Part shown: in pieces, positions 56,330 through 62,463 of the stretch
How positions within the stretch are numbered: the stretch's first letter is position 1
How the letters are laid out: every line of letters begins with the position of its first letter
Origin: an uncultured candidate division Zixibacteria bacterium
GTDB taxonomy: Bacteria > Zixibacteria > MSB-5A5 > UBA10806 > 4484-95
Length of the DNA: 64,000 nt
Reading direction: 5' to 3'
Assembly (NCBI GenBank): GCA_963668625.2
Contig: CAXXKA010000001.1
Location: 96,001 to 160,000 of the forward strand
Notes under the pieces: generated by a model
What the model saw: the letters and a program-made list of their open reading frames with translations, nothing else
What the model was told of the DNA's origin: nothing
The model's database searches: none
Program-made: the position numbers and the translations under genes

Positions 56330-57868
56330 CTAAACGATGACCACCAGGTATTGTAAATCACCGGCGCGCTCGATTACGAACAGTACTTTGTAACCTCGTC
56401 CTATTTTTTCGATCGTATTTTTGTAATCATTTAGATTCGCAATCTTATTGCGGTTAATTCGCCTGATAATATCGCCCTGCTGAAGCTCCCAGTTGGCAGA
56501 GACCGAATTATCCTCCCAACCTGCCACCATCACGCCCTGGTTATCTTTCAGGTTATATGTGCTGGCCAATTTCTTGGTTATGGATGCTACATGAAGACCG
56601 AAGCGATCGACTATCGAGGGGGCTTTCTCCAGCGGCAGTTCCTCGGGAACTATCTCTATACTCAGCGTATCCGAACCCCGAATGACCGCCAGATCGAGCT
56701 GTTCGCCCACTCTGGCGTAATTGATTATCTCATCCCAGTCGGACTGCTTGATTATTTCCTCGCTGTTAGCCTTGATTATAACATCACCCTGAGTAATACC
56801 GGAATTTTTTGCCGGCGAGTACTCATCAACGGAGGCGACGATAAGGCCGTTATTCACGTTCAATCCCAATCCCTGAGCAACAACCGGCGTGATACGCGCC
56901 GCCCGCAAACCAACCCAGGCTCGTATAACTTTGCCCGAGCTTATCAAATCACTGATTATCACCTTGGCGCGATTGACAGGTATGGCAAAACCGATACCCT
57001 CGGAACCCCTGCTTGAGGTAAATATGAATGAATTTATCCCGATTACATCACCTTTTGAATTAACCAGCGCTCCACCGGAATTCCCGGGGTTGATCGCAGC
57101 ATCGGTCTGGATCATGTTACGGTAAATCTGGCGTTGTCCTTCCTCGGATTTGATATCGCGATTGACCGCCGAGATCACTCCCACGGTGACAGTTGGCTTG
57201 GTATCATCGAGGAGATACCCGAATGGATTACCGATCGCGATAGCCCATTCTCCAGTCATGAGGTCATCCGAATTTCCCAGTATGGCGTAAGGGAAGTCCA
57301 CGTTGTCTGATATGATTTTCAACACTGCCAGATCGGAGGACTCATCTCCGCCGACAAGGTTTGCCTGGTACTGTTCGCCATTAGTCAGGGTTACCGTTAT
57401 TTGCTCGGCGCCTGAAACCACATGTTCGTTGGTTAGCACATAGCCCTCGGGATTTATAATTATGCCCGAGCCCAGCGAGTGAACCTGTTTTCTGTACTGA
57501 CGGGGGCCATACAGGAAGAACTCCCAGAAATCAGCTCCGAGGCCGGGGTGGTTTTGACGGTAGACTTGAGTCCAGGTTACTGAAATCGATACAACCGCAG
57601 GGCCAACTCTTTCAGCGGCAACGACTATCGCGTTTCGTCGGGATTCTAAAATACCCGTGCCATAGTAGGTTTCCTGAGCGGTCTGGTTAACAGGTAGGAT
57701 AGTAGTCGGTGATATACCGCTGTTTATATTGCCATCGCTTTTATTAGTGGCGATGCCTATGTTTTTTCCGGGATTAAATGCTTTTAACAAAAAATAGGAT
57801 GTCGCAGTACCCAGTACGGCACCTATAAGAACTAAGGCTATTACTCCGATTAACTTAGATGTTCTCAT
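56330..57868 (-). CDS. HtrA/DegP family serine protease with two PDZ domains
   Basis: N-terminal TM, GSGII, TNEHV, DLAVLK, QTDAAINPGNSGG. Confidence 0.93.
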   Translation of the reverse strand: MRTSKLIGVIALVLIGAVLGTATSYFLLKAFNPGKNIGIATNKSDGNINSGISPTTILPVNQTAQETYYGTGILESRRNAIVVAAERVGPAVVSISVTWTQVYRQNHPGLGADFWEFFLYGPRQYRKQVHSLGSGIIINPEGYVLTNEHVVSGAEQITVTLTNGEQYQANLVGGDESSDLAVLKIISDNVDFPYAILGNSDDLMTGEWAIAIGNPFGYLLDDTKPTVTVGVISAVNRDIKSEEGQRQIYRNMIQTDAAINPGNSGGALVNSKGDVIGINSFIFTSSRGSEGIGFAIPVNRAKVIISDLISSGKVIRAWVGLRAARITPVVAQGLGLNVNNGLIVASVDEYSPAKNSGITQGDVIIKANSEEIIKQSDWDEIINYARVGEQLDLAVIRGSDTLSIEIVPEELPLEKAPSIVDRFGLHVASITKKLASTYNLKDNQGVMVAGWEDNSVSANWELQQGDIIRRINRNKIANLNDYKNTIEKIGRGYKVLFVIERAGDLQYLVVIV

Positions 57869-57899
57869 AATTTCATCCTTTCTAATCTATCGGATAATT

Positions 57900-57928
57900 A
57901 TACTAAGAGGTAAGCGCAAAAGTTGCAA
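57900..57928 (-). promoter_or_regulatory. Putative sigma70 promoter of the htrA-like gene
   Basis: Minus strand TTGCAA-17 nt-TAGTAT. Confidence 0.45.
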
Positions 57929-57962
57929 TCACTATTATATGCTTATTTCAGGACTTTTATAA

Positions 57963-57991
57963 TTGAAACAGAGCCTTAAATATGGTAGTTT
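57963..57991 (+). promoter_or_regulatory. Putative sigma70 promoter of the sel operon
   Basis: TTGAAA-17 nt-TAGTTT with extended TGn. Confidence 0.55.
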
Positions 57992-58036
57992 TCAACTTAT
58001 ACTGGAATGTATTGGTCCTGCTCGATACCAAGCGCT

Positions 58037-58183
58037 GGGATTGTTGAAAAAGCCCTTGTTGGATGGACGAGGTGTTAGGAATCCTTTCCTGACACCTGAT
58101 TTCATGCGATATGTCGCGGGAAAGGATGAACAATGGACTTCGTCCGCCCAGCGGCGCATGAGAAAGATTTTTTCAACAACCCC
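58037..58183. mobile_element. 147-bp MITE-like element
   Basis: TIRs GGGATTGTTGAAAAA / TTTTTCAACAACCCC (14/15), flanking GCT direct repeats, extensive internal pairing. Confidence 0.7.
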
Positions 58184-58232
58184 GCTGCTTGGTATCGCCG
58201 AAGGAATGGCTAAAAAATATTTTGAGGAAGAA

Positions 58233-59282
58233 ATGAGTTCTAATAAAATAAAGCTCACCGGTTATGCATCCTGTGCCGGGTGAGCGGCTAAATTTTCGCC
58301 CGAGGCGATGATCCAGGTTCTGGATCGTTTACCCAAAAGAAAATTCGATGACGTACTGGTTGGTACGGATTTTTTCGATGATGCCGGGGTGGTCAGGCTC
58401 GATGATAAAACCGGTATCGTGACAACTGTCGATTATTTCACGCCGGTTGTCGATGATCCGGCTGATTTCGGTCGAATCGCCGCCGCCAACTCGCTATCGG
58501 ATATATATGCTATGGGTGGCAAACCCATATCGGCGCTCAATATCGTCGGATTCCCGGAAAAGAATCTGTCACTGGATATATTGGGCGATATCCTCGCCGG
58601 CGGGGCGGAGGTGACTAATGCCAATGATATCCCTATCGTGGGTGGACACTCATTTAAAAGCGATGAGCCGTTTTATGGGCTTTCGGTGACCGGGCTGGTG
58701 GATATCGATAAAATGATGATAAATTCCAACTGCAGAAACGGGGATTATCTTTATCTTACCAAACCCATAGGCTCGGGGCTGATTACTACGGCATTAAAAC
58801 AGAGCAAAGCCGAACCGGAGATAGTGGAGAAGGCTATAAAGGTAATGGCCGCGTTAAACAAAGAGGCCGCCGAGGCCGCCACGGAAACCGGTGTGATCGC
58901 CGGTACGGATGTTACCGGTTATGGTTTTTTAGGCCATTTGATGGAAATGATGATAGCCTCGAACACCTCGGCTGTGGTATACTCCGATAGCGTGCCGTTA
59001 ATGGATGGTGTTCACGAACTCGCCGAGCTTCAGACATTTCCTGGCGGAACGGGCGCGAATCTTCTATATGTGGATAAGCAGGCTGTCTGGGATGAGCGAC
59101 TTTCTCTGAATGAGAAAAGGCTTCTGTGTGACGCTCAGACCTCGGGAGGATTAATCCTGGTTGTTAATCCCGGTAAAGCGGATAAACTCGAGAATGAAAT
59201 GAAAAAACGTAATGTAATGGTTGCCCGGGTGGGCAAAGTGATAAAGCGGGAAGAATGGTTGCTAAAGATCAACAAAAATTAA
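58233..59282 (+). CDS. selD: Selenide, water dikinase, selenocysteine-containing (UGA at 58281-58283)
   Basis: GAGG SD, MSSNKIKLTGYASCAG-UGA-AAKF in frame with DDAGV, TVDYFTPVVDDP, AANSLSDIYAMGG, TDVTGYG, DAQTSGGL. Confidence 0.95.
58307..58329 (+). promoter_or_regulatory. Candidate bacterial SECIS stem-loop in selD
   Basis: GATGATCCAG-GTT-CTGGATCGTT; apical loop starts with GU, 33 nt after the UGA. Confidence 0.6.
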
Positions 59283-60613
59283 GCAAGATACCCTCGGTAA
59301 ATAAGATTCTGGAAAGGGATGATATTCGGGCTTTGATGCCGGAATGGTCGTTTGCCTATGTCTCGTTCGAGACTAAGAAAAAAGTCGGGGAGGCGCGAAA
59401 GCTGGCGCAGAGCAAAGGCGAGATATTATCCGAAAAACGGATCGCCGAGAAAGTAGTCGAAGCGTTCGATTACAAACGTACGACCTTAATCAAACCCGTG
59501 ATAAACGCCACCGGCGTAGCTCTTCACACCAATTTAGGCCGTGCTCCGATGAGTAGTGACTTGATAGAGCAAGTTACTAAAAACTGTGTATCGTATTGTA
59601 ATTTGGAATACGATCTCGAACTCGGCAAACGATCCAAACGCGGCAGCCTTGCCGGAGAAATAGCAGCCGTGCTGACAGGATCGGAAGCGGGTGTGATTGT
59701 CAATAACAATGCCGCTGCGGTGCTGCTAACTGTCAATTGTTTCGCAAAAGATAAATATGTTCTGGTATCAAGGGGTGAGCAGATACAAATAGGCGGTGGA
59801 TTCCGTATCCCCGAGATGATCGAAGCCTCGGGTGCGATGGTTAAAGAGGTAGGTACCACCAATCGCACGGTGCTTTCCGATTACTCCCGTCATATAGGCA
59901 AAAACACCGGGCTTATCATGAAAGTCCATCGCTCGAATTTCGAGCTCTCCGGGTTCACGGAGGAAGCCACACCGGCCGAGTTGACGGTGCTGGCCAACAA
60001 GAAAAAAATTCCACTGCTGTACGATTTAGGCTCGGGCATGATAACTAATTTCGATCTGGAGGAGTTCGATAACGAACCGAGTGTCGAATATGCCGTCCGT
60101 TCGAAAGCCGATATGATCTGTTTCTCCGGGGATAAACTTCTGGGCGGACCCCAGGCCGGCATCATTGTCGGTAAGAAAAAACTTATCAGCAAGCTAAGAG
60201 CGCATCCGCTATACCGACCGTTGAGGCCGGATAAATTCACCTTGAGCGCTATCGAGCAAACGTTGCTCGCTTATCTGGCTAATCCCGCTCGTATTCAGTT
60301 AAACTCGATATTCAAACAGGGCCAGGAGCTTCTTCAGAAAAGAGCCGAGGCGATTTGCGAAAAGCTCGATCTGGAATTCGTGCAACCCGCTCGAATGAAA
60401 AGCACGGCCGGTGGCGGTTCTACACCGACTATTGACTACAACGGGCTTGGTATAGTAATAAAAGAGAATTATAAAGGTCTAGACAGTAAACTTCGTAAAC
60501 ACGATCCTCCGATCATCATCAGGATGGGGCGCAGCAAAGCGATGATAGACCTGACCACGGTCTTGCCCGATCAGGATGAGATCTTAGTAAAGGCGTTGAA
60601 AAAATGTTTGTAG
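59255..60613 (+). CDS. selA: L-seryl-tRNA(Sec) selenium transferase
   Basis: VINATGV.LHTNLGRAP, VNNNAAA, EVGTTNRT, DLGSG, FSGDKLLGGPQAG. Confidence 0.96.
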   Translation: MVAKDQQKLSKIPSVNKILERDDIRALMPEWSFAYVSFETKKKVGEARKLAQSKGEILSEKRIAEKVVEAFDYKRTTLIKPVINATGVALHTNLGRAPMSSDLIEQVTKNCVSYCNLEYDLELGKRSKRGSLAGEIAAVLTGSEAGVIVNNNAAAVLLTVNCFAKDKYVLVSRGEQIQIGGGFRIPEMIEASGAMVKEVGTTNRTVLSDYSRHIGKNTGLIMKVHRSNFELSGFTEEATPAELTVLANKKKIPLLYDLGSGMITNFDLEEFDNEPSVEYAVRSKADMICFSGDKLLGGPQAGIIVGKKKLISKLRAHPLYRPLRPDKFTLSAIEQTLLAYLANPARIQLNSIFKQGQELLQKRAEAICEKLDLEFVQPARMKSTAGGGSTPTIDYNGLGIVIKENYKGLDSKLRKHDPPIIIRMGRSKAMIDLTTVLPDQDEILVKALKKCL

Positions 60614-62463
60614 TCGGCACTGCCGGTCATATAGATCACGGAAAATCCTCACTGGTAAAATCCCTTTCGGGCATCGATCCCGATCGTTTGCCCGAGGAGA
60701 AGCTTCGCGGCCTGACAATCGATCTGGGCTTTGCCTGGTTTAACCTTCCCGGCGGCGATTCGGTTGGCGTTGTGGATGTTCCGGGGCATGAGCGTTTTAT
60801 CAAGAACATGGTTGCCGGTGTTGGCGGTATTGATGCAGTCATGTTAATAATAGCGGCAGATGACGGCTGGATGCCGCAGACCACCGAACATCTGGATATA
60901 CTTTCACTCCTCGACATTAAAACCGGTATCGTGGTTCTTACCAAAATCGATCTGGTTGACGAGGAGATTGTCGAATTGCAAAAGGATGATATCTTAAATC
61001 ATCTTAAAAGTACGTTTTTGGAGAATGCCCCGATTGTATCGTTTTCAGCTAAAGATAACTCCGGCCGCGAGGATGTGCTTTCGGCAATCGAGAAGGCGTT
61101 AAGCAAAGGCGTGGAACATCCAGTATACGGTTCGCCACGACTGTATATCGATAGAAGTTTCGTGGTGAAAGGCATGGGCACGGTGGTAACCGGTACGCTC
61201 ACCGAGGGCGAGATCATGCTGGGACAGGAACTGCAGATCAGCCCCTCGGAGATGAAAGTTCGGGTGCGCGGTTTACAAACGCACAAACGTACTATCGAAC
61301 TGGCTAAGCCCGGCAGTCGCGTAGCTGTAAATATCACGGGCGCTTCTAAAGATGATGCCCATCGTGGCTCGGCCCTGGTTCTGCCCGGACATTTCGAACC
61401 GACAAAAGCGCTAGGCGTAAAAATAAAGATGTTACCCGAGGTTAAGCATCCATTGAAAAACGCCTCTGAGGTGGTATTCCTGTTGGGGACATCGATAACT
61501 CACGCCAAACTGAAATTGTTCAAGCGTAAAACCCTGACAGCGGGCGAGGAGGATTTCGCCGTTCTTCACCTGGAGGATGAGATATGCTGCCGCATAGGCG
61601 ATAGGTTTATACTGAGACGTCTTAGCCCGCCTATTACGGTAGGCGGTGGAACGGTGATCGACTGGGATTTCGATTTAGTCAAGCAGAAAAAAGCCACGCA
61701 ATATGAGATACTGAAAGCCCGTGCCGATTTATCCGTTGAATCGATAATCAAATCCGAACTGATCAAGGATGTTAACATAAAACCGCAACGGCTGAAACTC
61801 AATAGCCGTTACTCGCTCGAACAGATTGAAAAGCAGATAGCCGGAGCTAAGGATATCGTTAAAGCCGGCGGCGCGCTAATCCAGAAAGAGCATCTCCAGA
61901 AATACCTGGAACCGACGGTCACCATGTTAGAGAAAGATCACGAAACCCGCCCCTGGGTTAAGGGTGTACCGATCGGGGAGATAGCCAAGAAATTGAAAAT
62001 ACCGGCTAAAGAGCGCGAGGAGGTAGTAGCATACCTTCAAGCCGAGGGTAATATTACGCAGGAGGGCGGCGTGTTGAGACTGAATTCGCACGAGCCGCAT
62101 CTTAGCCCCGGTCAAAAAGCTTTATCTCAGAAATTGCATGCCATACTCTCGGCCGGACCTCTAGCCTCGCCATTGAAAAAGAAATTCATCAGTGATGATC
62201 CAGCGTATGAGGTTGTCATAAATTTCCTCGTAGAAAGCGGCGAGCTGTTGGAGCTGAAAAACGGAGTGCTGTTTACCCGTAAAGATTTCGATGAAGTCAT
62301 CGATGGCCTGAAAAAATTCATAGGCGGGAAAGGTAAAGCCACCGCCTCCGAGATAAAAGATCATTTGAAAACTACCAGAAAATATATCATCCCGCTTTTA
62401 GAGGAGCTTGACACGCTCGGAATAACGATAAGGGATGGAGATTATCGTAAGCTGGGGGAATAA
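60604..62463 (+). CDS. selB: Selenocysteine-specific elongation factor
   Basis: GTAGHIDHGKS, RGLTIDLGFA, DVPGHERF, TKID, C-terminal winged helix TRKY.IP.LE.LD. Confidence 0.97.
   Translation: MFVVGTAGHIDHGKSSLVKSLSGIDPDRLPEEKLRGLTIDLGFAWFNLPGGDSVGVVDVPGHERFIKNMVAGVGGIDAVMLIIAADDGWMPQTTEHLDILSLLDIKTGIVVLTKIDLVDEEIVELQKDDILNHLKSTFLENAPIVSFSAKDNSGREDVLSAIEKALSKGVEHPVYGSPRLYIDRSFVVKGMGTVVTGTLTEGEIMLGQELQISPSEMKVRVRGLQTHKRTIELAKPGSRVAVNITGASKDDAHRGSALVLPGHFEPTKALGVKIKMLPEVKHPLKNASEVVFLLGTSITHAKLKLFKRKTLTAGEEDFAVLHLEDEICCRIGDRFILRRLSPPITVGGGTVIDWDFDLVKQKKATQYEILKARADLSVESIIKSELIKDVNIKPQRLKLNSRYSLEQIEKQIAGAKDIVKAGGALIQKEHLQKYLEPTVTMLEKDHETRPWVKGVPIGEIAKKLKIPAKEREEVVAYLQAEGNITQEGGVLRLNSHEPHLSPGQKALSQKLHAILSAGPLASPLKKKFISDDPAYEVVINFLVESGELLELKNGVLFTRKDFDEVIDGLKKFIGGKGKATASEIKDHLKTTRKYIIPLLEELDTLGITIRDGDYRKLGE

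Follow-up and report, generated by a model that had tools for sequence, protein, structure and literature searches.

Classical bacterial MITEs, such as Correia, RUP, and Nezha, are short and gene-less, possess inverted-repeat ends, are flanked by a target duplication, and are found in many intergenic copies. The element described here, which lies in the selD leader of an uncultured bacterium of the candidate division Zixibacteria, resembled them in being short, gene-less, and present in many copies, with 104 of its 107 loci in the genome outside long open frames, and differed in its parent family, its hairpin-loop target, and its interior, which consisted of repeated extragenic palindromes (REPs).

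IS1272 and TnSha1, staphylococcal elements of the IS1182 family, are reported to use hairpins as insertion sites in either orientation and with little dependence on the primary sequence, leaving no target duplication and deleting part of the hairpin stem (PMC4923244, PMC5678879); palindromes are targeted by some members of the family (Siguier 2015, as cited in PMC4923244). On this description, they share with the selD-leader element both the transposase family, to which its parent element (protein P0001; see below) belongs, and the use of hairpin targets. On the other hand, the loop was duplicated here by 3-4 bp, both arms were left intact, and the element carried no gene. Insertion sequences that target REPs were assigned to five families, IS3, IS110, IS4, IS256, and IS5, in PMC1525189, in which the term IS1182 had 0 occurrences. 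These elements (IS1397, ISKpn1, ISPpu9/10, IS621, and others) also insert specifically into repeated extragenic palindromes, but are autonomous, whereas the selD-leader element is a MITE. REPINs and RAYTs are the subject of PMC3116915, PMC3337134 (Bertels and Rainey 2011), PMC2817692, and PMC3333891; compared with such REPINs accompanied by a RAYT, the doublet was located here inside IS1182-type inverted repeats with target duplications, and the bare doublet was rare in the genome. A REP doublet enclosed by IS1182 ends was not described in the titles or the first parts of the abstracts of the papers retrieved by literature searches. The best explanation for the segment, with a probability of roughly 0.88, is a MITE with IS1182-type ends and a REPIN-like interior that was inserted into the GCT loop of a selD leader hairpin.

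Layout of the selD leader and its orthologous sites

The window, i.e., the whole stretch of 64,000 nucleotides that was analyzed, contained selD, selA, and selB; the gene upstream of selD had the opposite direction and encoded a HtrA/Do-like protease. The features of this region were as follows (positions of the window):

57963-57968 and 57986-57991, plus strand: promoter-like block upstream of selD, TTGAAA and TAGTTT with a spacing of 17 nt (putative promoter)
57997-58015, plus strand: what may remain, in degenerate form, of the 5' leader hairpin native to the genus (TATACTGG...), aligning weakly with the leaders of two congeners (G002 and G001)
58021-58033, plus strand: left arm of the split target hairpin with a CT flank, probably a member of the REP-B family
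58034-58036, plus strand: left copy of the target-site duplication GCT, the original loop of the hairpin
58037-58183, plus strand: non-autonomous element (MITE) of 147 bp with IS1182 ancestry (107 loci, shared ends, and empty orthologous sites)
58037-58055, plus strand: left terminal inverted repeat; over 24 nt, it shares 96% identity with the left end of a G013 insertion sequence
58071-58096, plus strand: interior hairpin P1, REP-A type, with paired changes; the same hairpin is present upstream of a RAYT gene
58113-58155, plus strand: interior hairpin P2, REP-A type in inverted orientation, with paired changes; its short form is present around the RAYT gene
58128-58146, plus strand: GGAC-TTCG-TCC mini-hairpin of 19 nt within P2
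58166-58183, plus strand: right terminal inverted repeat
58184-58186, plus strand: right copy of the target-site duplication GCT
58187-58200, plus strand: right arm of the split target hairpin with a CCG flank; the flank CCGAAG is common to the REP-B copies at C4:71772 and C4:74824
58233-59282, plus strand: selD (selenide, water dikinase; TIGR00476, 360 bits with a cut-off of 125)
59255-60613: selA (TIGR00474, 468 bits)
60604-62463: selB (TIGR00475, 348 bits)

The original prediction described an element placed exactly in the loop of a hairpin, and the arrangement was present in the sequence as described, with GCT on both sides and a split 11-bp stem around 147 bp. When the coordinates were re-derived, CGATACCAAGC (58023-58033) was followed by the first GCT, and the second GCT preceded GCTTGGTATCG (58187-58197); the element between them started with GGGATTGTTGAAAAAGCCC and ended with GATTTTTTCAACAACCCC. 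In silico removal of the element and one GCT restored the perfect hairpin that had been claimed: 11-bp arms CGATACCAAGC/GCTTGGTATCG with a GCT loop. The proposed position between the promoter-like block and the start codon of selD (58233) was also confirmed.

The promoter-like block was aligned in five of five relatives and was exact in four of them (TTGAAAC-N-TAGTTT), while G009 reads TTGTAA and TAGTAT (TTGTAAC...TAGTAT); this block was missing from the list of a consensus scanner because the second hexamer matches only 3 of 6 positions. The synteny between the protease gene and selD was kept in the five relatives, and the selD leader lacked the 147-bp element in all five examined, providing the empty sites that were expected for an insertion. 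The distance between the TAGTTT box and the start codon was approximately 45 nt in four relatives, 59 nt in G003, and 240 nt here. The insertion postdates the split from the two congeners examined (G001 and G002). No empty-site allele was found in the contigs of four public runs: those of run X1 break inside the repeat, while those of run X4, from a second study, covered both junctions in the filled form. Among the public runs listed with the sequence, none was recorded as RNA.

There were two further observations on selD and its upstream region. An in-frame TGA was present at codon 17 of selD (58281-58283) and was kept in five of five relatives (L069-L073); SelD itself is a selenoprotein here. 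In G002 (L070), other REP-like hairpins and a further repeat, e.g., GCCGTCAAAAATCCTTTCCTGACGGC, were located approximately 100-370 nt upstream of selD, indicating that the same intergenic region, upstream of the promoter block, was colonized independently elsewhere.

A repeat family with IS1182-type ends

When the genome of this organism (4.30 Mb in 10 contigs; 95.9% complete) was searched, blastn yielded 79 matches at E-values up to 1e-5, as predicted for a multi-copy sequence, and an nhmmer profile constructed from 24 full copies yielded 120 matches, corresponding to 107 non-overlapping loci, 42 of which had both ends. Facing end pairs at a distance of 121-158 bp numbered 25. Terminal inverted repeats of approximately 19 bp per end were conserved over 44 aligned copies. 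The claim of a non-autonomous multi-copy element was supported by these inverted-repeat ends, by target duplications, and by the number of loci. On the other hand, the open frames that had been noted on both strands proved to be incidental, because the copies ranged between 118 and 158 bp in length and differed by indels of 1, 10, and approximately 20 nt, which break any reading frame.

An exact flanking direct repeat of at least 3 bp was found in 20 of the 42 complete copies (4 bp in 12, 3 bp in 6, and 5 bp in 2) versus 476 of 20,000 controls (2.4%). The other 22 had shorter, imperfect, or no duplications, with none at all in 10. Paralogous empty sites, which were uninterrupted copies of an often-hit host repeat (family A; see below), were available for 6 of the 42 copies, and each comparison showed exactly four gapped bases. 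The most similar pair of copies was 98.6% identical. The sel copy shared 83% identity on average with the other copies, and since even its nearest paralogue was only 87% identical, it is an old insertion.

Two complete copies were flanked by inverted instead of direct sequences (GCT/AGC at C8:385723-385870 and GTTA/TAAC at C6:375703-375850), which matches the expectation of a recombinational inversion between oppositely oriented copies. Some copies without a left end (C4:262741-262860, C4:68427-68527, and C6:845452-845565) had near-identical sequences of 20-35 bp on either side, versus the usual 3-4 bp.

The ends had originally been compared with those of the IS5/IS1182 type, and this was borne out: an insertion sequence present in relatives had a left end to which the first 24 nt of the element were 96% identical. 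Its transposase of this insertion sequence, 444 amino acids long (P0001), scored 369.7 bits on NF033551 (IS1182 family; NCBIfam, cut-off of 270) and contained the Pfam domains DUF772 and DDE_Tnp_1_6. In G013, a member of the same order, three left ends (GGGCTTGTTGAAAAAGCCCTTGTT; 96% over 24 nt to the sel copy) were followed by the start of the transposase; in this single-contig assembly, the copies (G013:C1, 221615, 2039287, and 3622092) run into gaps of 100 N inside the IS1182 element, so that the repeat was left unassembled there. Of 285 genomes of the phylum, 14 contained the left-end sequence. An autonomous element with matching ends was found in G013, G009, G270, G113, and others, with full copies of approximately 1.42 kb in G009, G270, and G113, and the MITE shared only the first 24-30 nt and the last 20-24 nt with these full elements. 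The full copies were themselves bracketed by 8-bp inverted stems in G009 (CATTCCCG...CGGGAATG) and G270 (ATCCCGCC...GGCGGGAT), and by a partial stem in G113.

No autonomous partner was detected in the organism's own assembly, in a gap of which a copy could sit, and a search of the genome with PF13751 gave 0 matches. Several candidates were rejected. Facing ends at distances similar to those of insertion sequences (2631 and 4466 bp) enclosed ordinary genes; a DUF772 remnant (C8:222625-223344) had a similar left end, but its protein was only 39% identical to P0001; and the ends of the two multi-copy insertion sequence types of the genome were unrelated to the MITE. The latter two types (1329 and 1268 bp) were each present in six copies (12 loci, e.g., C6:805763 and C3:91534), and look recently active in view of the identity of at least 99.6% among copies. 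A relic of 29 amino acids in the genome was 69% identical to P0001. The shared ends, and these only, suggest that the MITE may have been mobilized by a P0001-type transposase. As the assembly contained no intact parent transposase, the family is probably immobile now.

Two inverted REPs in the interior of the element

The predicted fold of 58015-58205 had a free energy of -90.9 kcal/mol (z = -8.55), and none of 200 shuffled sequences was equally stable; the opposite strand was nearly as stable (z = -7.54). The fold closes the 11-bp outer stem, pairs the two ends of the element, which together would form a near-continuous duplex of approximately 30 bp, and leaves the inner hairpins P1 and P2. 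In the family consensus, P1 corresponded to GGTGTCAGGAATCCNTTCCTGACACC and P2 to GTCGCCGGGAAAGGAT...CCCAGCGAC. Across the 44 aligned copies, 85.1% of the cells in P1 and P2 were standard pairs, versus 39-53% when the partners were slid; the end helices were 80-90% paired. Changes on both sides were found in 5 of 10 pairs in P1 and 5 of 8 pairs in P2, and the covariation score was reached by 0 of 500 shuffles, counts that are inflated by the kinship of the copies. A long helix with G-U pairs, which had been proposed for the interior (TTGTTGGATGGACGAGGT/ACTTCGTCCGCCCAGCGG), was absent from the minimum-energy and centroid folds, and its left arm fell within the region where the family alignment varied most.

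The competing helices of the original prediction, GGTGTTAGGA/TCCTGACACC versus ATCCTTTCCTG/CGGGAAAGGAT (10 of 11 positions complementary), were both present in the sequence. The apex of P1 (ATCCTT) mirrors that of P2 (AAGGAT), with the two hairpins being complementary at 10 of 11 positions, and these mirror-image tops of inverted REPs give rise to the mutually exclusive helices. In most copies, the GGAC-TTCG-TCC mini-hairpin was located in the top of P2; it was inverted in the top of P1 in L082, L084, and L085, and was missing from L077, L080, L086, and L090.

The same hairpins flanked a RAYT gene (C8:173781-174344), the product of which (P0002) scored 106.7 bits on NF047646 (cut-off of 80). 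Upstream of this gene were P1-type hairpins (C8:173330 and C8:173554), AGCTGTCAGGAATCCTTTCCTGACAGCT and a variant, and two copies of the short form of P2 (CCGTCGGGAAAGGATTCCCAACGG), a third copy of which was present directly past the stop codon. P1 and P2 are a REPIN arrangement, i.e., two inverted REPs, and the interior of the element is derived from a REP pair, not from an insertion sequence. As for the region of the RAYT gene itself (G000:C8:173250-174400; L098), a tandem duplicated unit of approximately 224 bp preceded the gene and carried both hairpin types of the MITE; in all, the genome contained eight Y1_Tnp matches.

The proposal of a switch-like RNA structure was not upheld, because the inverted REP pair, identical in type to the hairpins flanking the RAYT gene, accounts for the strong fold, the compensatory changes, and the competing helices without an RNA switch. 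A dedicated cis-regulatory RNA of the sel operon (riboswitch or leader) would agree with the position in the 5' leader, the stability of the fold, and the compensatory changes in the two inner hairpins; however, the segment was repeated at 107 loci, occurred in both orientations relative to one host repeat (see below), was missing at selD in all five relatives, and folded about as strongly on the opposite strand. In addition, an Rfam search of 57000-59500 at a permissive threshold (E up to 10) gave three matches, all far below the gathering score; the best overlapping match was nadA with 17.1 bits against a gathering score of 37.5. A cis-regulatory RNA is, therefore, extremely improbable, and this reading is largely refuted.

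The core of P2 was confined in this genome to loci of the MITE family (58 of 58 copies), while the congeners G001 and G002 contained 5 and 3 copies, respectively, 8 of 8 without IS1182-type ends. This distribution suggests that IS1182 ends came to enclose, in this lineage, a REP doublet that is native to the genus, and that amplification followed. Bare hairpins in congeners, together with an interior of two inverted REPs that match the hairpins around the RAYT gene, would also be expected if the element were a REPIN whose movement depended on its RAYT tyrosine transposase, with the inverted-repeat ends being incidental. This is very unlikely because the ends were conserved on both sides and matched an IS1182 insertion sequence, the flanking duplications of 3-5 bp and the 4-bp differences at empty sites fit a DDE transposase, and all 58 cores had this architecture here against the few bare copies in the congeners. 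HUH single-strand transposition is not known to leave such a target duplication. A hybrid of two unrelated mobile systems, in which the REP doublet is a RAYT substrate inside DDE (IS1182) ends and either enzyme might act, is rather doubtful. If it were true, nearly the entire REP-A population of this genome would be contained in such hybrids, REPs may owe their spread here to a DDE transposase that was borrowed, and the hybrid would in turn seek the hairpins of another REP family.

Host hairpins, probable order of events, and the sel operon

The predicted preference for hairpin loops was found across the family. When contiguous complementary pairs were counted, with duplicated bases allowed for and controls treated alike, flanking stems of at least seven pairs were present in 9 of the 42 complete copies versus 0.53% of 20,000 controls. 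Several of these nine were sites of one host repeat (family A) and not independent, and at least five different stems were hit: the sel site (11 bp), C7:44207 (10 bp), C6:377387 (8 bp; GAAA loop), C8:474300 (7 bp), and family A with a covarying variant at C5:250768. Since 31 of the 42 complete copies had no flanking stem of at least five pairs, hairpin targeting is a preference, not a rule. In the often-hit family A (...TTACCTC-GGAG-GAGGTAA...), the element was located in the loop in both orientations.

Family A was the most frequent host repeat, extended from the loop by at least 130 bp in each direction, and also had uninterrupted paralogues (loci G000:C6:54100-54700 (L105), C10:412970-413085, and C4:98639-98755). 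At one locus, its start directly followed a tRNA gene (Rfam tRNA, 69.7 bits), and this tRNA beside one copy was the only match when the host-repeat loci were searched against Rfam.

The second group of host sites was related to the REP-B family, which comprised 155 intact hairpins whose stems measured at least 9 bp and whose top read AAGC-NNN-GCTT; the usual loops were GCT, AGC, and GGC, and the hairpins were often paired 69 bp apart with the loops GCT and AGC. Examples are CGTTGCGAAGC-GCT-GCTTCGCAACG and GGTTTCCAAGC-AGC-GCTTGGAAACC. Copies were clustered around another RAYT gene (C4:43960-44490; 115 bits on NF047646, cut-off of 80; region C4:43300-45000, L104). Among the intact ends of the MITE family, 10 of 71 on the right and 4 of 56 on the left were adjoined by REP-B arms, versus approximately 0.15% of controls. 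At the sel site, the restored 30-nt unit CT-CGATACCAAGC-GCT-GCTTGGTATCG-CCG agreed in 26 of 30 positions with a REP-B copy (C1:674622-674651), and the four mismatches corresponded to two compensated pairs. By this similarity, the split host hairpin is probably a repeated REP element, not a dedicated sel leader hairpin. The two congeners possessed leader hairpins of their own, single-copy in their genomes: ATACCGTGTAC-GCT-GTACGGTA in G001 and ATACCGGT-AATTA-ACCGGTAT in G002. The assignment to REP-B is not certain because the outer stem ATACC/GGTA was common to the split hairpin and both of these native hairpins.

Alignment of the leader with those of the congeners gave scores of 36 and 41.5 when the REP-B block and MITE were both removed, versus 28.5 and 31 when only the MITE was removed, which mildly favors a separate insertion of REP-B. 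With the REP-B block removed, TATACTGG was aligned with TATACCGG (G002) or AATACCG (G001), which had an equal offset from the TAGTTT box. A REP-B copy is thus fairly likely, on the basis of these alignments, to have entered the selD leader first and to have been split later by the MITE.

We infer the following order of events. A full-length element would have provided, in trans, a DDE transposase of the P0001 type, and this enzyme would have recognized the ends of the MITE and integrated it into a hairpin or cruciform tip by means of a staggered cut of 3-4 bp; in the 5' leader of selD, insertion into the GCT loop would have duplicated the loop. The parent element would later have been lost or decayed, and the sel copy would have drifted after insertion. 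The effect on selD may have been near-neutral, because closure of the 11-bp outer stem is still possible in the predicted fold, with the element then prolonging that hairpin; such a position in the loop would also explain the tolerance of insertions of this kind in leaders.

Alternatively, the insertion may have been co-opted to tune selD-selA-selB, as a target of RNase III, a stabilizer of the mRNA, or by masking of the leader. A transcript from the conserved promoter-like block must cross the element, the outer stem and the paired ends together offer the near-continuous duplex described above, and the filled allele was also present in the contigs of the second study (run X4). However, no terminator-like site was predicted on the sense strand, the sel copy showed no special conservation relative to its paralogues, and a tolerated loop insertion is the simpler reading; co-option is, therefore, unlikely. 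The original proposal that the element may alter the expression of the Sec machinery was not supported.

Hairpin targeting is already known for the IS1182 family, and the selD-leader element, as an IS1182-ended MITE, is a tidy example of it, not a new regulatory RNA. The feature of modest wider interest is the combination of a REP-pair interior with REP-loop targets. The practical consequence for the sel operon is modest, namely a leader that expanded to approximately 240 nt with a very stable predicted fold. This strong structure is parasitic DNA nested in other repeated DNA, and should, therefore, not be annotated as a selenium-responsive RNA. For the IS1182 family, the locus adds a well-documented case of hairpin-tip targeting outside staphylococci, with clean duplications of 3-4 bp and both hairpin arms intact, unlike the published cases. 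REP, REPIN, and MITE are linked here in one genome, which bears on how REP populations expand.
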